Of a stretch of 64,000 nt of DNA, positions 6,182 through 63,076 are shown in pieces (positions within the stretch are counted from its first letter, which is position 1; each line of letters begins with the position of its first letter). Origin of the DNA: Escherichia phage 4E10; sequence record OQ689735.1; one strand, written 5' to 3'. The notes under the pieces were generated by a model. That model did not search any database and had not been told where the DNA came from. It saw nothing but the letters and a program-made list of their open reading frames with translations. The translations under genes and the position numbers were made by a program.

Positions 6182-6673
6182 TTATGCATAGCGAGCTTTG
6201 CTATAGTGTTTAATCCAACTTTCAGGAATGACTTTGTATGTTCCTAAAAATACCGCGTTGTATAACTTAACGCCATCTTCTACCCATTGATCAGTAATGT
6301 ATGCACACATAGCGCGAGTACGGTTAACAACACCTTCCTCACCTTCAGTAAATTCAAACTCATAAGGAGCAACGAACTTAATAGCTTGACCGAGTTTCCA
6401 CTTAAAGTCTACACCTACATGCGAAGTATCAATCGTTTCAATTCCTTTAGCAGGAACAGCTTTCAAAAACGCAGACTCAAGAAATTTCCATCGAACATAA
6501 CCAAACTGAGGTTTAGACATTCCATCTTTAGGAATGATACGCACTTTTACTTCAGAATCTTCATCTTTAACACCATGTTTAAGCTGAATGCTTACGACTT
6601 CAACCAATTTTCCTGCTGCTTTAGAACGGGATTTATCAGATACACGAGCAATTTCACCGATATTAATATTCAT
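6182..6673 (-). CDS. motB: MotB-like protein
   Basis: 163-aa ORF at the T4 motB position; size matches. Confidence 0.5.
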   Translation of the reverse strand: MNINIGEIARVSDKSRSKAAGKLVEVVSIQLKHGVKDEDSEVKVRIIPKDGMSKPQFGYVRWKFLESAFLKAVPAKGIETIDTSHVGVDFKWKLGQAIKFVAPYEFEFTEGEEGVVNRTRAMCAYITDQWVEDGVKLYNAVFLGTYKVIPESWIKHYSKARYA

Positions 6674-16253: not shown

Positions 16254-16379
16254 ATGGTAGGAATTTTACTCTGGAACTTTATTTTATCACCAATTGCAAT
16301 TGCACATGGTGTTAATATTCCAGTAGTTACTCTTGATACATTTGTAGATTTAGCATTTGCTTTAGTTGGGTTAATTTAA
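16254..16379 (+). CDS. plus-strand mini-ORF (41 aa), hydrophobic peptide
   Basis: MVGILLWNFILSPIAIAHGVNIPVVTLDTFVDLAFALVGLI; stop overlaps gene 61 stop convergently. Confidence 0.3.
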   Translation: MVGILLWNFILSPIAIAHGVNIPVVTLDTFVDLAFALVGLI

Positions 16380-17404
16380 ATCTTAGCATATTTAGATAGC
16401 CGCATTTTAGCCATTAACCCCTGGGCAATATTATTTTTCATATATTCCATAATTTGTTCAGGGGTTGCACCTTCCTTTCTAATCATATCATTAACATCTT
16501 TTGATTTCCAGGGAGATTTATCCCAAAACATAACCCTTTCTCCTGCATCAACTAATTTAGTCATTCGCTTGATAGTGTCAGGGTGACGAGGTTCATTATC
16601 TAAAACCCACACTCGTCTATCTTTAAATGGAACAACTTCTAGGTCTAATTGACCACCCGTAATAGCTATACCATTTTCAATGAAAAGGGAATCGATAGGT
16701 CCTTCTAGAACATATACATCGCCATCTTTAACTCGTTCAACTCCATAGATTTTTGTTGCCTCAGGATAAGCTTTAATGGTGATATATTTTTGAGGAGCAT
16801 CTTTCTTTAATGCGCGTCCTTGAAAAGACTCAGCCTTTCCATTAGCATTATAAATTGGAATAACAAGACGAGGCTCAGAAATTTCCTTTTTGTATGTTCC
16901 CGGTGCGATGCTATTAACTAATTTAGGCCATTCGGTTGTAAACCAAAGATATTTCCATTTATCCTTTGGAATACAACGAGCTTTTACATATTTTATAATT
17001 GGATGGTCTTCCGCCAGTTTATCTAATCTAACACATGACGGAAGAGATTTAATTATTTTCTTCTCAGGTTGTTTAGGAAGTTCTTTAGGTTTTTCTACTG
17101 GACGACTTTTACCTTTTTCTTTTCTTATTTCAAAGATATACTCACGATATAAATCAGGTTCAAACTCCTTTAAATATATTCCGATTGGTGCATGATAGTT
17201 ACAGTTATAACAATGAATATTTCCTTCATTATTATCACCATAATACCATCCACGAGCTTTATTCTGGTCGGTTTTTGAATCTCCGCAAACAGGGCATCTA
17301 AACCGCAATTTAAAAGTTGAACTATTATTTACTTGTGTGAATTTAGGTAAATGAGCCAATGCACGATACGCAAACTCATTATCAATCCAAGGTATTGATG
17401 ACAT
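16376..17404 (-). CDS. 61: DNA primase
   Basis: 342-aa ORF; zinc ribbon CPVCGD...CYNC plus TOPRIM region; matches T4 gp61. Confidence 0.9.
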   Translation of the reverse strand: MSSIPWIDNEFAYRALAHLPKFTQVNNSSTFKLRFRCPVCGDSKTDQNKARGWYYGDNNEGNIHCYNCNYHAPIGIYLKEFEPDLYREYIFEIRKEKGKSRPVEKPKELPKQPEKKIIKSLPSCVRLDKLAEDHPIIKYVKARCIPKDKWKYLWFTTEWPKLVNSIAPGTYKKEISEPRLVIPIYNANGKAESFQGRALKKDAPQKYITIKAYPEATKIYGVERVKDGDVYVLEGPIDSLFIENGIAITGGQLDLEVVPFKDRRVWVLDNEPRHPDTIKRMTKLVDAGERVMFWDKSPWKSKDVNDMIRKEGATPEQIMEYMKNNIAQGLMAKMRLSKYAKI

Positions 17405-17406
17405 TT

Positions 17407-17571
17407 TTACTCTTCTTTTTCTTTAGATTCCTCTTTTTTCTTTTTAGGAATCTGTTCAGGACCTTTATTTACTACAGCACCTGACGTTGTTCCAGTAGAG
17501 ATATTTTCAGGACTACTACCTGAATCTCCAGCGACCATATCTTCTTTGATAAATTCTTTATATGTTTTCAT
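17407..17571 (-). CDS. mini-ORF with internal-protein-like N-terminus
   Basis: 54-aa ORF below cutoff; N-terminus MKTYKEFIKED resembles the IP capsid-targeting sequence MKTYQEFIAE; low-complexity tail. Confidence 0.4.
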   Translation of the reverse strand: MKTYKEFIKEDMVAGDSGSSPENISTGTTSGAVVNKGPEQIPKKKKEESKEKEE

Positions 17572-17614
17572 ATTAACCTCTATTCATAAAAGCATTAAAA
17601 ATTTGGTCATCAAT
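17569..17614. repeat. 46-bp direct repeat, copy 1
   Basis: 43/46 identical to 17927..17972; spans the 61.1 stop and next-gene RBS/ATG. Confidence 0.7.
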
Positions 17615-17929
17615 CGATGGAATAGCAACTTTTTCTGCATCATTTAGCAAATCATTAATTTCATCAGATAGCATAACACATGTACCTTTATTTCCTGTAA
17701 TTGTTACTGCACAATTACGAACGTTTTCTTTATTAAATTTTAGGTTAATATTTTCGTAATGAAAATCCTTTAATGCTGAATATATTTTTAAAATAAAATT
17801 GTCTTTTACTACAATAAACCCAACCTCACTATTAAAACATGGTTCATGGAAACTGTAATAAACCTTTTCATCTATAAAATCGTATGAAATTTTTTCCATT
17901 TTTAAATATGAAAATTCAGAACTATACAT
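17573..17929 (-). CDS. hypothetical protein (T4 61.1 position)
   Basis: 118-aa ORF; C-terminal tail SIDDQIFNAFMNRG shared with next gene. Confidence 0.55.
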   Translation of the reverse strand: MYSSEFSYLKMEKISYDFIDEKVYYSFHEPCFNSEVGFIVVKDNFILKIYSALKDFHYENINLKFNKENVRNCAVTITGNKGTCVMLSDEINDLLNDAEKVAIPSIDDQIFNAFMNRG

Positions 17930-17972
17930 ATTAACCTTTATTCATAAAAGCATTAAAAATTTGATCGTCAAT
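17927..17972. repeat. 46-bp direct repeat, copy 2
   Basis: Near-identical to 17569..17614. Confidence 0.7.
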
Positions 17973-18572
17973 AGAAACTTTTACTTTAGGCTGTTCTTCA
18001 AACGGTAATTCATATCCACATATTACAATTTTGTGATCGATACCAAAATACACAGAAGCAATATGATTAATATTATTTTCAGTGAAATCTAAATCAACAT
18101 CAATATCTTTTTGACTAACGCTCAAAGGATAATTAATACGAATAATTCGATTATCTTTAACAAAGATTCCACCGACATACTCTGTGTTGCGTTTAAAGTT
18201 TACACGTTTCCTAAATGAAAAATATTCAGGTTCTTTATGAGCCCGACTCATAGGACATAATGAATAGCTAGAATAAGAGATGTCAAATCCTACACCTTCA
18301 ATATGAACCAACGCGTCATGATTAAACCAATTATAATCATATGCCAAATCCATTATATTGTAATATGTGAAAGGCACCGGATTAACATCATATATTGTAC
18401 CTTTAAAATCTGCCCAGGCAACGATTTCATTATCTTTAACAATTACAAAAATTGTGCCAATAAGATATCCACGGTTATTTTCATCAGGCGTTATATTATA
18501 ACATTGTGCATCAGGAAATTTACCGTATTTAAACGGTGGATTTTTGTGCATATAATAAATCATATTATTCAC
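17931..18572 (-). CDS. hypothetical protein (T4 61.2 position; possible AdfA-like)
   Basis: 213-aa ORF; positional equivalent of T4 61.2. Confidence 0.5.
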   Translation of the reverse strand: MNNMIYYMHKNPPFKYGKFPDAQCYNITPDENNRGYLIGTIFVIVKDNEIVAWADFKGTIYDVNPVPFTYYNIMDLAYDYNWFNHDALVHIEGVGFDISYSSYSLCPMSRAHKEPEYFSFRKRVNFKRNTEYVGGIFVKDNRIIRINYPLSVSQKDIDVDLDFTENNINHIASVYFGIDHKIVICGYELPFEEQPKVKVSIDDQIFNAFMNKG

Positions 18573-18858
18573 CTGTGATTTCGGTTACGATATCTTTGTT
18601 ATCAAAATTAGGGTCACAATACAGAACATAATTATACTGCATTACACCACCAGACTTAAGCTGTTTTTGTACTTCAGCTTTCATTTCAGGACGATCGCGC
18701 TCAACGATATTCATAATATCCGCTTCAATTTGAGTTTCAACTTCAGTCTGATCTGCAGTCATAGACCATTCACATAAATCTTTATCATAACCTGCCATAG
18801 CAGGCTGAGCAGCACAAGAAGCTAAAGCAAAAATTGTAGCAAAGATAAATTTTTTCAT
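18565..18858 (-). CDS. sp: Spackle periplasmic protein
   Basis: 97-aa ORF with signal peptide; matches T4 Sp in size and position. Confidence 0.75.
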   Translation of the reverse strand: MKKFIFATIFALASCAAQPAMAGYDKDLCEWSMTADQTEVETQIEADIMNIVERDRPEMKAEVQKQLKSGGVMQYNYVLYCDPNFDNKDIVTEITGE

Positions 18859-18886
18859 GATAATCTCCTCAGTAGTTTATGTTTAT

Positions 18887-18916
18887 ATAGTATCTCAATT
18901 TCCAACAAAAGTAAAC
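18887..18916 (-). promoter_or_regulatory. T4-type early promoter
   Basis: GTTTAC, 18 bp, TACTAT on minus strand, then GGAG and the sp ATG. Confidence 0.5.
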
Positions 18917-18918
18917 AG

Positions 18919-19176
18919 TTATTTTAAAACTTCTGCGTAATCACATGTTACAAACTGTTTCTCTAACTTGTCGATTTTACGAAAATACCTTTTACACTGA
19001 CGAATCTGTCGCTTCGTAGGACGTACAGCAAACTTAATAAATTCCACTCGACCAAATGGAGGACTTTCTTCTGCTGGAATATCTAGCACCAATTCCCACG
19101 TATCTGCAATAAGTGCTTTGAATTGAGTATTTTTCCTGACGTTATACGGAGTAGGTTTAAATAAAACAATATGCAT
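18919..19176 (-). CDS. hypothetical protein (T4 61.4 position)
   Basis: 85-aa ORF. Confidence 0.5.
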   Translation of the reverse strand: MHIVLFKPTPYNVRKNTQFKALIADTWELVLDIPAEESPPFGRVEFIKFAVRPTKRQIRQCKRYFRKIDKLEKQFVTCDYAEVLK

Positions 19177-19177
19177 A

Positions 19178-19360
19178 TTATCCTCGGCAATCTACTTCAC
19201 ATACTTTCTTGTCATCAATGAAAGCTTTAACTAATGCTTTATTAACTTCAGCATATTGAGTAGTAGCCCATTGAACGTCATCTTTCATCATTGTGATTTC
19301 TTTAGTAAACATACTTTCATTCTTAAACCACCCCATAAAAACTACCTTTACCAATTCCAT
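19178..19360 (-). CDS. dmd: Dmd antitoxin
   Basis: 60-aa ORF; matches T4 Dmd in size, position and sequence. Confidence 0.8.
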   Translation of the reverse strand: MELVKVVFMGWFKNESMFTKEITMMKDDVQWATTQYAEVNKALVKAFIDDKKVCEVDCRG

Positions 19361-19389
19361 AACAATCTCCTCATTTAACCAACAAGACT

Positions 19390-19419
19390 ACTATACCATA
19401 GTCTTGTCAGCTTGTAAAC
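19390..19419 (-). promoter_or_regulatory. T4-type early promoter
   Basis: GTTTAC, 18 bp, TATAGT; ACAAGAC/GTCTTGT inverted repeat brackets the -10. Confidence 0.5.
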
Positions 19420-20846
19420 TAAAATTTTAATTCATTTGCCAAAGCATCTAACTGAGCTCGAGCTGATTCGTTTCTTTGATAGCGATTCTGTTCAGCCTGA
19501 ATCTGTTGTGAACCTGCTACTTCACTCAATTCGGTTGGAGTAGAATCTTGTTCAATTTCTACCCATTTTTGATTTCCTTTTTGAACACCCATCAAAAACT
19601 TATTCCACTTATTCTTATCACCATATCGTGATTTGATTTGCTTAATGAGTTGTTGTTCAGCAGCTGCTAGCTCCTCGGTTTCAATGACCGCAAGCATAAA
19701 ATCAGCTGTTGCTGGAAGACCAGCAGATTCTGCAATATCGCTCATGTTAACATCGGAAGAGTCCCAAGCTTGTTTACCAACCTGTGCTGCAGTCCAAAGA
19801 ACAGTTTCGGTTTCAACAGCCAGAGCACGCAATTCCTCTGCGATAGCTTTAACAGTTGTGTAACTATTTTCTGAATAAACTCGGATGCGACAAGATTTAC
19901 AAATACCCAGATAGTCGACAATAATGATTGTTGGAACAAAATTCTTTTTGAGCTTCAATTCATTCAAGAGAGACCTGAATGTGTTAGCGTCTGCTCCACC
20001 AGTAGGATACTGTTTAACGATTAAACGCCCAAGAGTAGATTTCTCACGCCATTTTTCCATTTTTCCTTTATACTCAGCGTAAGAAATATGTCCATCATCA
20101 ATATCGTCAAGAGAAACATCGAGCATATTAGCGTCAATACGTTTAGCACAGACTTCTTCTGCCATTTCCATGGAGATATAAAGAACATTATGTCCGAGCT
20201 GTAAATAATCTGCCGCTAATGAACACAATCCTAATGACTTACCAACGTTAACGCCAGCCATTAAAACGTTCAGTGTTCCGGTCTCAGCTCCGCCTTTAGT
20301 AATTTTGTTTAGAATTCTGAGTTTAAATGGAACTTTACGAGCTTTATTCATATAAGATAGCCAGCGTGCTTCGTAGTCATCCATCCAATCATGACCAACG
20401 TAGCTATCAAATGAAATTGATAATGCTTGTCGCATGATGTCAGGAATAGCACCTACATCTGGCATTTTCTTATTTCGTTTTTCCGGAGGAAGCTCAGCAT
20501 TAGTTTGAATTTCAATTATTTTAGACGTAGCATTAAACATCGCCCTTTGCTGAACATATTTTTCTGTTTCTTTTACTAACCAGCTGTGGTCTTCTGGAGA
20601 ATCAGCCAGTTTTGAAATAAGTGTTTTTACACCAGAATATTCTGTTTCAGTAAATGAACTATTTTCTAATGCAACATTTAACGCATTAATAGATGGAACG
20701 CTATGGTACTCATTAACATGAGATTTAATTAATTTGAATGTATTTTTAGCTGGACCACTTTCAAAATATTCTGAATCCATATATGGCCAAACTTTTGAAA
20801 AATAAGCTTGATCAAATATAAGATGAGAAAGAATAATTTCTACCAC
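19419..20846 (-). CDS. 41: replicative DNA helicase (DnaB family)
   Basis: 475-aa ORF; Walker A GVNVGKS; matches T4 gp41 length. Confidence 0.9.
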   Translation of the reverse strand: MVEIILSHLIFDQAYFSKVWPYMDSEYFESGPAKNTFKLIKSHVNEYHSVPSINALNVALENSSFTETEYSGVKTLISKLADSPEDHSWLVKETEKYVQQRAMFNATSKIIEIQTNAELPPEKRNKKMPDVGAIPDIMRQALSISFDSYVGHDWMDDYEARWLSYMNKARKVPFKLRILNKITKGGAETGTLNVLMAGVNVGKSLGLCSLAADYLQLGHNVLYISMEMAEEVCAKRIDANMLDVSLDDIDDGHISYAEYKGKMEKWREKSTLGRLIVKQYPTGGADANTFRSLLNELKLKKNFVPTIIIVDYLGICKSCRIRVYSENSYTTVKAIAEELRALAVETETVLWTAAQVGKQAWDSSDVNMSDIAESAGLPATADFMLAVIETEELAAAEQQLIKQIKSRYGDKNKWNKFLMGVQKGNQKWVEIEQDSTPTELSEVAGSQQIQAEQNRYQRNESARAQLDALANELKF

Positions 20847-39509: not shown

Positions 39510-39833
39510 TTAATCTTCTATGATATCTCTATCATATCCAAGTGAAATGAGAGTTTCTTTGAAGTGTTTAATGTTCTTTTGCCTAGAATCATTAATGAAA
39601 ATGACCGGATACCGAATATTAAGAGATGTGAATCCGGCGCGTTTGGCAAGAGATACAATCAGTGGACGATCATACTCAATCTTACCATTATTAGTAAGAA
39701 CTTTATAGAAAGTAAAAGGAGCATTGAGCTCCTTTAGAAGTTTTGTAACTGATTGACATCCAGGACAACGACCTACTTCATCTGGAATTCCATAGACTTC
39801 AATCTTATTCTTTAAGTTCGAGTTTTGTTCCAC
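39510..39833 (-). CDS. nrdH: NrdH-like glutaredoxin/thioredoxin-fold protein
   Basis: CPGC redox motif in GIPDEVGRCPGCQS; track ORF extends to 39962 but that overlaps the upstream gene, so a GTG start near 39833 is likely. Confidence 0.5.
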   Translation of the reverse strand: MEQNSNLKNKIEVYGIPDEVGRCPGCQSVTKLLKELNAPFTFYKVLTNNGKIEYDRPLIVSLAKRAGFTSLNIRYPVIFINDSRQKNIKHFKETLISLGYDRDIIED

Positions 39834-40116
39834 GAGAAATAATTCCTTGGTAAGCCCAATAAGGAGGATTAACAGAATCCTCACCAGAGTTTTCTTCAGG
39901 AAAATAAACCTGGATAACGAAGCCGGATTCATCAAAGGTAAAATAAACCGTAGGCAGTTCACCTAACAAATCGGCACGAGCGTTGATTTCTTCGAGGTCT
40001 TGTTCACGTCCAGCCCAGAAGCTTGGGTTCAGACTACATTCATAGAAATAATAGTCATTACCGAACATATCAAAACCATTCCAACTCTCTACTACATACC
40101 GCTCAAAACTAATCAT
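39805..40116 (-). CDS. hypothetical protein
   Basis: 103-aa ORF with protein-like composition. Confidence 0.5.
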   Translation of the reverse strand: MISFERYVVESWNGFDMFGNDYYFYECSLNPSFWAGREQDLEEINARADLLGELPTVYFTFDESGFVIQVYFPEENSGEDSVNPPYWAYQGIISRGTKLELKE

Positions 40117-60579: not shown

Positions 60580-60960
60580 TCAATTAGAAAATAAATTTAT
60601 CCAAGATTGTTCTTTAATTAAAAATGGCTCAGAATCATATGCCATTAAACTTTGCGTAATTAATCCTTTAAAAGGTCCATCAATAAATTCCATGGTAAAA
60701 TATGGAATTTTATTCATTAGCCGTGCATTAGGAGCAGTGCACAAAACTCTGCATCCTTTGAATACGCCTTTTTGTAATTTGTATTGCTTGGGATAAAATT
60801 CGCTCAAAATGTTATTATTTGCCAAAATTTCAAAATGATTTACCAATTTATTTTTAATAGTTTTTGGCGAAAAATAAAGATATTCGAAAAGCTGTGTATC
60901 TGTCATCATTGCATTCCGATTACGAAAAACTGCGGACGAGTAATACCACCAATGCAACAT
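60580..60960 (-). CDS. hypothetical protein
   Basis: 126-aa ORF. Confidence 0.5.
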
Positions 60961-61445
60961 TTACTATTACAGCAGTAGTGTACAGTGTCAATATGGACAC
61001 TATAAATCTTATCCATATCAGGAGATTTGACAGGCTCATCAATTATATACAAAATTCGCGAAAGCGATAAACCTCTGAACTTGCTTCCTTTATTACCAAT
61101 AAAACTGCGCACAGAATCAGTAAATAAACGAAAACGTATATCATCATTAGAATAACGCGAAAATTCCTTTTTGATGTTATTTGCAGAAATTTTAGCGTAA
61201 GCTGAAGTATTAGAAAGAACAATAACTGTTCCGCCATCATACAGCCAATTAGCAGCAAAGTTAGTCACAGCAATTGATTTGCCGGATTGACGTCCACCAT
61301 CTATGCGAAGTGTGCAGTACTGTTTGAGTAAGTCTTCAAATGGCGGGGTATATTCGTTTTTACAAATTTCTTCTACTCTAGCATCAGAATGGTGTGTAAA
61401 AGCATTCATCAGGGATAGATAAGGACCAGTTAAAAATGTTCTCAT
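60906..61445 (-). CDS. P-loop-containing hypothetical protein
   Basis: Track ORF 60906..61493 trimmed to ATG after GAGAGAA (MRTFLTG...); GGRQSGKS P-loop-like. Confidence 0.45.
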   Translation of the reverse strand: MRTFLTGPYLSLMNAFTHHSDARVEEICKNEYTPPFEDLLKQYCTLRIDGGRQSGKSIAVTNFAANWLYDGGTVIVLSNTSAYAKISANNIKKEFSRYSNDDIRFRLFTDSVRSFIGNKGSKFRGLSLSRILYIIDEPVKSPDMDKIYSVHIDTVHYCCNSKCCIGGITRPQFFVIGMQ

Positions 61446-61586
61446 TTTATTCTCTCTAAATTTGGGCCATTCCGTGGCGCATGAATTGTCCATTTCTGTA
61501 TTTACCCATTACCGCACTCAGGCTCGACCTTATTACAGGTTGGCGGGAATCCCTCACAAAATCATGAGGTCCAGGTTGTTCCCATA

Positions 61587-62060
61587 TTATTTGAATGATT
61601 TGACGTACTGAATAGAACCTTTACTATTCACAAAGGCAATTTTACCATTTTTGTTATACATGGTAGCAGTACGCTGATAGCCATAAGTTTGTTTACCAGA
61701 TTGATAACCAACTAATGCAAAATTATCTTCGCCCATTTTATTCTGCTTAGCGCGGATACGTTCATGACCGTGCGCCATAAGAACCTTAGCGTCGCCAGTT
61801 GCAATGGATCTACGAGTTTTTTCATCTTCAACTGTATTAACAAAGTCGTCAAATGAATCAAATTTAGCATGAGATTTATTATACAGTTTTCCATCTACTG
61901 CATAATTATATCCCTGTACATCCATCTCAACTTCTGTACCATCATCCAATACAGCAGTGATTTTTTGACCTTTTTTAAATTTCAAAAGATCAGTAAAAGA
62001 TTCAGCAATAATTTGAGAATTAATAGCTGCTTCAGTAATAAATTCTTGATATGTTTTCAT
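61587..62060 (-). CDS. head internal protein (IP family)
   Basis: 157-aa ORF; N-terminus MKTYQEFITEA is the IP capsid-targeting sequence. Confidence 0.7.
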   Translation of the reverse strand: MKTYQEFITEAAINSQIIAESFTDLLKFKKGQKITAVLDDGTEVEMDVQGYNYAVDGKLYNKSHAKFDSFDDFVNTVEDEKTRRSIATGDAKVLMAHGHERIRAKQNKMGEDNFALVGYQSGKQTYGYQRTATMYNKNGKIAFVNSKGSIQYVKSFK

Positions 62061-62069
62061 ATGTTTCCT

Positions 62070-62486
62070 TTAAATGTAAATATTTTTACCGTAATACTTG
62101 TACCAATGTGGTTTCATTAAAATTTTTTCATCAAGTCGTTGTTGACTCAATTTAATAGCTGATTTGCATGGATTATAATCATTTTTCCATTCTGCTGGAA
62201 TATCGCTGATGTCAGGAACTTCAGTATCTTTTATACTAAACCCGCGTTTTAAGCATTCCGTTATAATGTCTGATTGACGCTTTCGCAAAAATTCTAACTT
62301 ATCGTAAAAGAAAGTAACATGACCAGAACCTAAAATAAACTCGGAAGATATTTTAAAATCTTTAACCCGCTTACCATTTGCCACATGTTTACGAACTATA
62401 CCAAAAACACGCGGCAATTCACGGTATTCTGCGATTAAATGTTGATCAGCAAGTTCAGATACTAAAGTCAAATTAATACGAGTCAT
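62070..62486 (-). CDS. denV: endonuclease V (pyrimidine-dimer DNA glycosylase)
   Basis: 138-aa ORF; matches T4 DenV ([17 protein letters not shown]...). Confidence 0.9.
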
Positions 62487-62545
62487 TTTATCCCTCCAAG
62501 TAACTGTGAATATACTATCACAATTCTAGGAGAAAGTAAACAACT

Positions 62546-63076
<531 letters not shown>

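Follow-up and report, generated by a model that had tools for sequence, protein, structure and literature searches.

We analyzed a 64,000-nucleotide stretch of the genome of Escherichia phage 4E10 (OQ689735.1), hereafter the window, and studied gene 61.1, a 54-codon gene on its minus strand. Judged by alignment with the capsid protein gp23, 61.1 is a free-standing copy of the region around the gp23 maturation cleavage site, homologous to that junction. The first residues of its product, gp61.1, also resemble the capsid-targeting sequence (CTS) of the internal proteins (IPs) of T4-type phages, and pattern counts across the window indicate that this resemblance is real and not a product of chance. 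We read gp61.1 as an accessory protein that may be directed to the prohead core and processed by the protease gp21, a possibility that we take seriously but hold tentatively.

The homology to gp23 was seen with two search methods. First, BLASTP aligned residues 2-38 of gp61.1 with residues 57-93 of T4 gp23 without gaps (41% identity, E 3e-8). Second, in a PDB-wide profile search with hmmsearch, gp23 chains were the only hits that were significant at the default threshold (E <= 0.001). Full-length gp23 scored higher in this search (27.2 bits, E 3e-5) than mature gp23 (22.4 bits, E 9e-4), which indicates that residues before the cleavage site contribute to the match. Because maturation of gp23 removes exactly 65 N-terminal residues (PMC9546572), F7-I8-K9-E10↓D11 of gp61.1 aligns with F62-L63-T64-E65↓A66 of gp23, the site cut by gp21 (arrows mark scissile bonds, proven or putative); the deposited mature gp23 chain begins at A66. 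Residues 2-10 of gp61.1 are the counterpart of the C-terminal end of the gp23 propeptide and at the same time are IP-CTS-like. The motif in residues 11-38 is kept in all 170 family members that we examined, and the elements GD.G, NI..G.TSGA[VI] and GP are common to 61.1 and gp23. The RB43 homolog, which is a longer protein, also matches gp23, and seven pairs of 61.1 and gp23 from the same genome align; gp23 was compared from T4, RB43, Acj133, Aeromonas phage 31, AlbertHofmann, Stupor and Aragogtheria. AlphaFold2 predicted only an N-terminal helix in gp61.1 (residues 4-13) and disorder in the rest. A preliminary description of this DNA, made from the letters alone, had recognized the CTS likeness and overlooked the homology to the gp23 maturation junction, which is the main feature. 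It had called the remainder of the protein low-complexity; this fits the last 16 residues only, and not residues 11-38, which form the conserved motif homologous to the mature gp23 N-terminus.

The same description had compared the start of the protein with that of the true IP of the window, and here we agree: 8 of 11 residues are shared (MKTYKEFIKED versus MKTYQEFITEA). Its remark that this start ends in a protease-site-like I-x-E also stood, as I8-K9-E10 is in register with the site at which gp21 is proven to cut gp23, an alignment that strengthens the idea of a prohead protease substrate. In all six frames of the window there were just two instances of the relaxed pattern MK[TS][YF].[ED][FVLIM][ILVM].[ED], at the starts of 61.1 and the IP gene, and it occurred in 0 of 200 shuffles. 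Within gp61.1, I8-K9-E10 is the sole [LIVMF]-x-E site. Mutagenesis of the IPIII CTS has tied targeting to positions 4 and 7, and processing to positions 8 and 10 (reviewed in PMC9026906). At these four positions gp61.1 holds Y4, F7, I8 and E10, and the window IP also has Y4 and F7, a comparison at the level of sequence only.

The putative cleavage motif is a property of the whole family. An [LIVMF]-x-E with its Glu 3-4 residues before the AGD anchor was found in 164 of the 170 members, 136 of them with Leu or Ile at P3, against a background of 2.9% per position for [LIVMF]-x-E elsewhere in the family proteins. As the sequences are related, these are not independent observations. The junction motif survives 2-aa insertions (KLNE↓D, KLTE↓D). 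Short family members from other genera keep an N-terminal M-x-x-F-x-x-F-phi-x-E despite a spacer before the junction, for example MIGFKQFVEENKLKE↓DMTAGD in Krischvirus, as well as P0025 and P0027, and this retention across a spacer suggests that the N-terminal element is an independent module. The T-even N-terminus may be derived from the segment just before the junction of the long family members, to judge from KEIFKELPLFE↓DMVAGD in Mosigvirus versus MKTYKEFIKE↓DMVAGD in T4. A second upstream [IL]-[TS]-E site in the long members was limited to close relatives (10 of 22 diverse representatives) and is not a family feature. At the DNA level, 27 of the first 33 nucleotides of 61.1 are identical to those of the IP gene, and the DNA upstream is unrelated. 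The shared codons AAA, ACA, TAT, GAA and TTT are A/T-rich codons favoured by T4-type genomes. We considered a recent DNA exchange with the IP gene and found it not demonstrated, given the unrelated upstream DNA and the expectation that the shared codons are those preferred by the genome.

The identity of the gene was settled by comparison with public records. By megablast the window belongs to Tequatrovirus, with 97-99% identity to RB27, KIT03 and relatives. The T4 counterpart is gene 61.1 (NP_049649, labelled 'hypothetical protein'), to which the window copy is 93% identical, and the RB27 record holds the same 54-aa coding sequence (CDS) with the note '61.1'. In PHROG, gp61.1 matched family 1823, the short form, over residues 1-54 (E 1.5e-32) and family 2086, the long form, over residues 8-53 (E 2.3e-15). 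On these matches, 17407..17571 is gene 61.1 of a T4-type phage (Tequatrovirus). The 54-aa open reading frame (ORF) that the preliminary description considered missed by annotation therefore exists, but it is not unannotated, being present in the public T4 and RB27 records. The neighbour called 61.1 in that description is apparently the ORF at 17573..17929, an extra truncated paralog of AdfA/61.2. A chance ORF is ruled out by conservation and by purifying selection (ratio of non-synonymous to synonymous substitution, dN/dS, of 0.07-0.25 against relatives, with dS saturated between lineages). Pfam gave no match at E <= 1 for gp61.1 and none for six long forms, and Rfam gave no match over 16300..19500 and thus no sign of an RNA element in place of a protein. 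The TAA of the upstream ORF stops 1 nt short of the 61.1 start, and 2 nt separate the 61.1 stop from the ATG of the primase gene (61), a close packing with its neighbours that is typical of the T4 early operon style. Because 'gp61.1' appeared only within gene lists in the literature that we searched, its reading as a CTS-bearing paralog of the gp23 junction seems to be new, while the gene itself has long been known.

Table 1. Coordinates of gene 61.1, its parts, its neighbours and the sequences compared with it. Positions are those of the window unless a locus is given.
Feature	Position	Strand	Description	Basis
Gene 61.1 CDS	17407..17571	minus	54 codons + TAA, ATG start; protein MKTYKEFIKEDMVAGDSGSSPENISTGTTSGAVVNKGPEQIPKKKKEESKEKEE	ORF list and sequence
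Residues 1-10	17542..17571	minus	MKTYKEFIKE; CTS-like, ends in I-K-E protease-site motif (codons 8-10, 17542..17550)	
Residues 11-38	17458..17541	minus	DMVAGDSGSSPENISTGTTSGAVVNKGP; copy of the first 28 residues of mature gp23 (region forming N-arm/N-fist)	
Residues 39-54	17410..17457	minus	EQIPKKKKEESKEKEE; Lys/Glu-rich variable tail	alignment
Shine-Dalgarno GAGG	17577..17580	minus	5 nt 5' of the 61.1 ATG	direct sequence reading
Gene 61	16376..17404	minus	DNA primase, 342 aa; directly downstream of 61.1, conserved synteny partner	ORF list, RB27/T4 annotation
Truncated AdfA (61.2) paralog	17573..17929	minus	118 aa; upstream neighbour of 61.1	Pfam PF23813
Candidate early promoter	19390..19418	minus	sigma-70 type, TTTACA-17-TATAGT with TG; upstream of dmd	promoter scan
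Internal protein (comparison)	61587..62060	minus	canonical CTS MKTYQEFITE↓A	PHROG 3155 'internal virion protein', E 6e-102; Pfam DUF7412
UvsW.1 start, T4	L003, ~6210-6441		MLLEFKQFLYE↓A	
UvsW.1 start, RB43	L014, 8566-8796	minus	MKSFTEFVNE↓A	
UvsW.1 start, Aeromonas phage 31	L015, 9531-9761		MLSFKSYLHE↓A	
UvsW.1 start, Krischvirus	L024, 17865-18101		MISFKRFLVE↓A	

Next, we characterized the family by its spread, architecture and genomic neighborhood. A tblastn search with 61.1 returned ~1,480 phage records from Escherichia, Klebsiella, Aeromonas, Acinetobacter, Vibrio and other hosts, and a profile search of 1.84 billion representative proteins returned 50 family clusters; only 5 related loci were found in a scan of IMG/VR. 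The search of 1.84 billion proteins recovered no gp23-length protein at E <= 1e-3, as is expected for a ~35-bit match in such a large library. Two architectures were seen: a long form (~125-165 aa), in which a helical N-domain precedes the conserved motif, in RB43, Acinetobacter phages, Mosigvirus and KVP40-like phages, and a short form (50-70 aa) in Tequatrovirus, Krischvirus and Aeromonas phage 31. The N-domain alone also matches Pelagibacter and Rhizobium phages. With the N-domain as query, tblastn returned 612 phage records; none of the 40 rows sampled was Tequatrovirus, and T4 and RB27 encode the 54-aa form only. AlphaFold2 predicted a helical N-domain for the long form (predicted local distance difference test, pLDDT, 76-90 over residues ~10-70) and a disordered tail, and Foldseek found no fold match for the N-domain in the PDB. 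In most other Straboviridae the junction and tail form the C-terminus of a ~155-aa protein, and we suggest that T-even phages have lost the N-domain and retained just the targeting/cleavage element and the gp23-like peptide.

The position of the gene is equally constant. The primase gene follows it directly or lies only a little downstream in the window, RB27, T4, RB43, Aeromonas phage 31, a Mosigvirus, a Lazarusvirus, a KVP40-like phage, a Krischvirus and a metagenomic contig, while in Acinetobacter phage 133 (Acj133) two hypothetical CDSs lie between 61.1 and the primase gene. The gene order 41-61.1-61 is kept in all lineages examined, including the metagenomic T4-like contig, and the minimal layout is uvsX-40-41-61.1-61. 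Gene 61.1 is among the few small T4 ORFs that are position-conserved in nearly all Straboviridae, and it has been a function-orphan for 30 years.

Beyond the possession of these sequence features, every step of the course that follows is one that we infer. The junction/CTS element would dock gp61.1 onto the gp22 scaffolding core during prohead assembly, as the IPs and the gp23 N-terminus do, and gp21 would then cut after Glu10. The cut would free a 44-residue, 4.6-kDa peptide (D11-E54), which would remain in the head or leak out with the scaffold fragments. The gp23 counterpart of residues 11-38 lies within the prohead before expansion, probably against the scaffolding core, and goes on to form the N-arm and N-fist: residues 66-105 of mature gp23 are disordered and inward-pointing in the unexpanded head, where they probably contact the scaffolding core, and form the N-arm and N-fist after expansion (PMC9546572).

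The candidate early promoter upstream of dmd is likely to be the start of a dmd-to-61 transcript that carries 61.1, as far as a promoter scan can tell; no MotA box was found between it and 61.1. In a time-resolved T4 dataset the 61.1 transcript is classed as 'early'. The transcripts of T4 ipII and ipIII are 'early' too and their proteins 'late'; an early transcript is compatible with prohead cargo. A role in the head is also in keeping with the presence of gene 40, which encodes a head-assembly chaperone, in the early 40-41-61.1-61 module.

A number of observations weigh against such a role. The residue that follows the putative scissile bond (P1') is Asp or Glu in most family members, whereas proven gp21 sites have Ala or Ser there (gp23 E↓A, gp24 E↓S, IP E↓A); with Asp at this position, cleavability of gp61.1 is uncertain. 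In gp23, the substitution A66D at the P1' position alters head length (PMC9546572). The long forms often carry Pro at P4, which breaks the CTS register. The CTS-like starts of UvsW.1 and of a 103-aa ORF of the window, described below, weaken the specificity of the motif, which may be a general N-terminal helix. No late TATAAATA box was found upstream of 61.1 in a scan back to the candidate early promoter. gp61.1 was undetected in time-resolved whole-cell proteomics of T4 (Class_P NA), though a 27-residue tryptic peptide is expected, and a T4 head mass-spectrometry study leaves it unmentioned in its main text and in the supplementary files examined. The available data lend no direct support to packaging and delivery in the virion, which the preliminary description had raised as a possibility. 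In genome-wide T4 screens, 61.1 was 'Not Fit' in CRISPRi-ART and 'Non-essential' in HIDEN-SEQ (13/13 sites hit); as it is dispensable in both, any role would be accessory. A matrix of the seven genomes showed no excess identity between the 61.1 of a phage and its own gp23. Finally, the fixed synteny with helicase gene 41 and primase gene 61 fits a replication role equally well.

We weighed three other explanations against these data. gp61.1 might never be packaged and instead act in the cytoplasm as a mimic or decoy of the gp23 N-terminal junction, made early so as to occupy a partner that later meets the gp23 N-terminus. Candidates for this partner are the gp21 zymogen, the gp22 scaffold, gp31/GroEL, gp40 and a host capsid sensor (Lit, or the CmdTAC chaperone CmdC), and the effect could be to tune head assembly or to blunt capsid-triggered abortive infection. 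The solid homology to gp23 57-93, the early transcript and the lack of a late promoter all suit a decoy, as do the location of T-even 61.1 at the end of a counter-defence cluster (dmd, sp, adfA/61.2) and its dispensability in laboratory hosts, which is usual for counter-defence genes. The family is, however, near-universal and fixed in position across Straboviridae, including KVP40-like phages, with its N-domain in Pelagibacter and Rhizobium phages, unlike counter-defence genes, which are patchy and host-specific. The Gol peptide sensed by Lit presumably lies just after gp23 residue 93, outside the segment shared with 61.1. While gp23 is a known trigger of host defence through CmdTAC, the region of gp23 that CmdC senses is unmapped (PMC11618068), which takes away from the decoy. 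A pure decoy would also leave the conservation of both the hydrophobic-x-Glu site and the CTS-like start unexplained. We consider this explanation rather unlikely.

A role in the replication module seems to us improbable. gp61.1 would here be an accessory of helicase gp41 or primase gp61, for example through contact of its Lys-rich tail with DNA or an acidic partner, and the likeness to gp23 and the CTS would be the relic of an old partial duplication. The constant order 41-61.1-61, the 2 nt between the 61.1 stop and the gene 61 ATG and the early transcript can all be read in this way, and a dispensable helper is plausible as gene 61 itself was only 'Intermediate' or 'Not Fit' in the screens. 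Nothing about gp61.1 resembles a known replication factor, however, with no Pfam match and no fold match for the N-domain; the family is most conserved in the gp23-like motif and cleavage site, whereas a relic would not have been preserved; and head-assembly gene 40 is in the same module, so that position need not imply replication. Least probable, in our view, is that the decapeptide is a generic start of small T4-type proteins, an A/T-rich and well-translated MK(T/S)F.EF that forms an amphipathic helix and has no targeting meaning. UvsW.1 starts similarly in four genera, the 103-aa window ORF begins MISFERYVVES, and the 27/33 nucleotide identity with the IP gene need not mean DNA exchange given that the A/T-rich codons are presumably preferred. 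Against a generic start, across the whole Krischvirus genome the loose motif was found on just 3 of 284 annotated CDS starts (gp24, UvsW.1 and 61.1) and on 3 of ~2,050 other Met-initiated ORFs, and gp24 is a proven gp21 substrate in T4, where this element is its propeptide. The strict pattern was absent from all 200 shuffles, and the motif is in register with the gp23 cleavage site.

If gp61.1 is prohead cargo, its closest functional analogues would be the T4 internal proteins and the gp24 propeptide (a CTS plus L/I-x-E), and we consider it a candidate member of the IP class. Like IPI, IPII and IPIII, it has a decapeptide with an aromatic residue at 4, Phe at 7, Ile at 8 and Glu at 10, is small and laboratory-dispensable, and has an early transcript (as do ipII and ipIII). 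Unlike these folded basic proteins, it has a body that is a disordered, gp23-homologous peptide of 44 residues (gp61.1 isoelectric point 5.5) and Asp instead of Ala at P1', and its gene is fixed beside that of the primase and not in the variable IP loci. The IPs are poorly conserved (PMC9026906) whereas 61.1 is conserved family-wide, and gp61.1 is known here from sequence and not from virions. With gp23 it shares a segment predicted or observed to be disordered unless locked in the expanded lattice, but it lacks the HK97-fold body, measures 54 instead of 521 aa and comes from an early and not a late gene. The gp24 propeptide and the core proteins gp67 and gp68 similarly have a short N-terminal helix ending in phi-phi-x-E, followed by cleavage; gp24 of Krischvirus starts MTHIFTELLRE↓S, and the T4 gp24 propeptide we take to be MAKINELLRE↓S. 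In the RB43 record, genes 67 and 22 are annotated as internal-peptide precursors. gp67 and gp68 differ in being essential and encoded in the late head-gene cluster, while gp61.1 is dispensable and belongs to the early replication module. T4 offers a precedent in alt.-1 and alt.-2, small ORFs that partially duplicate the 5' portion of alt and so stem from the N-terminal region of a packaged, gp21-processed head protein. These adjoin their parent gene and are named only 'hypothetical' and not 'conserved hypothetical', whereas 61.1 lies ~86 kb from gene 23 and is ancient.

Should the prohead reading be true, a single recognition element (aromatic-x-x-phi-phi-x-E) is suggested to underlie the targeting sequence of the IPs, the gp24 propeptide and the end of the propeptide of gp23, and the reading would lengthen the list of T4-type head cargo, which matters for models of head maturation and for the engineering of T4 protein delivery. 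A broader proposal, which we advance as speculation that may well prove wrong, is that 61.1 is an ancient, near-universal and trans-acting 'capsid-junction mimic', loaded onto the core and cut by gp21, that would either take part in head maturation unnoticed or be injected as a peptide; 61.1 and UvsW.1 would together represent hidden CTS-tagged cargo encoded outside the head-gene clusters. If gp61.1 is not packaged, it would still be a natural peptide mimic of the capsid N-terminus and a useful probe of binding to the scaffold, the protease and host sensors.

Some GenBank and UniRef entries (e.g. OP870145, MN895435, MW082584, KM236237) name 61.1 homologs 'major capsid (domain-containing) protein'. 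We reject this label as an over-annotation that stems from the 37-residue similarity to gp23. Membership of gp61.1 in the gp23 family of capsid proteins (PF07068, HK97 fold) was likewise rejected: there is no Pfam Gp23 match, the similarity is confined to gp23 57-93, and the protein has 54 aa and is predicted to be disordered. In the SGA[V/I] column of the alignment, the 61.1 residue is the same as that of the gp23 of the same phage in 7/7 genomes (V in 3, I in 4; sequences from loci L004-L007, L014, L016-L019 and L021-L024). This agreement is suggestive of co-adaptation between 61.1 and gp23, but the co-variation is non-significant when allowing for 22 variable columns and shared ancestry.

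UvsW.1 is a small acidic protein encoded after the uvsW helicase gene, and its first ten or so residues are CTS-like and cleavage-site-like in four genera (Table 1). It may be another cryptic prohead-targeted protein, or the motif may be more general than a CTS. The 103-aa ORF of the window (39805..40116, minus strand) has a looser CTS-like start (MISFERYVVES). Taken together, these likenesses mean either further cryptic cargo or a motif that is less specific than the IP literature implies. The IP locus of the window (60906..63040, minus strand) differs in arrangement from that of T4: it runs e, denV, one IP (DUF7412) and then a 195-aa ORF, where T4 has the order e, ipIII, ipII, denV. The 195-aa ORF has a P-loop-like motif (GGRQSGKS), and its start is not CTS-like.

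In some metagenomic T4-like phages (P0033, P0051, P0055 and P0188; L025 4001-4720), 61.1 is fused to an extra C-terminal domain of ~100 aa. This domain opens right after the Lys-rich tract with a motif of the F-x-Q-F-V-E type (...KKKRKKMNEVMTFCQFQ... and ...NFKQFVEGLE...). It had no significant match in PHROG, the only hit being weak (E 0.048). In its layout, the fused protein resembles a polyprotein of CTS-tagged modules.

The tail of gp61.1 varies between lineages; elsewhere in the family it is a basic KKKRKK instead. Its coding sequence in the window holds an A-rich run, AAAAAGAAAAAAGAGG, and T6-type relatives (P0002, P0004) have a 62-aa product that ends in ...IPKKKKRNLKKKKSKNVINTLD. The longer product is consistent with a 1-nt deletion, and hence a frameshift, in the A-run. 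Such a deletion would trade the acidic tail for a basic one and give an ORF that overlaps the start of gene 61, and from this swap the exact sequence of the tail seems to be unconstrained.

Finally, the 118-aa ORF upstream of 61.1 matched the Pfam family AdfA (PF23813) with E 3.6e-8 over profile positions 129-211, i.e. the C-terminal 83 positions only. AdfA, an anti-DarT factor, is the current name of 61.2. The ORF and the AdfA/61.2 gene of the window (17931..18572) end alike, in SIDDQIFNAFMN(K/R)G. A CDS for this paralog is present in RB27, as RB27_035 without a gene name, and there is none in the annotated 61.2-61.1 interval of T4.

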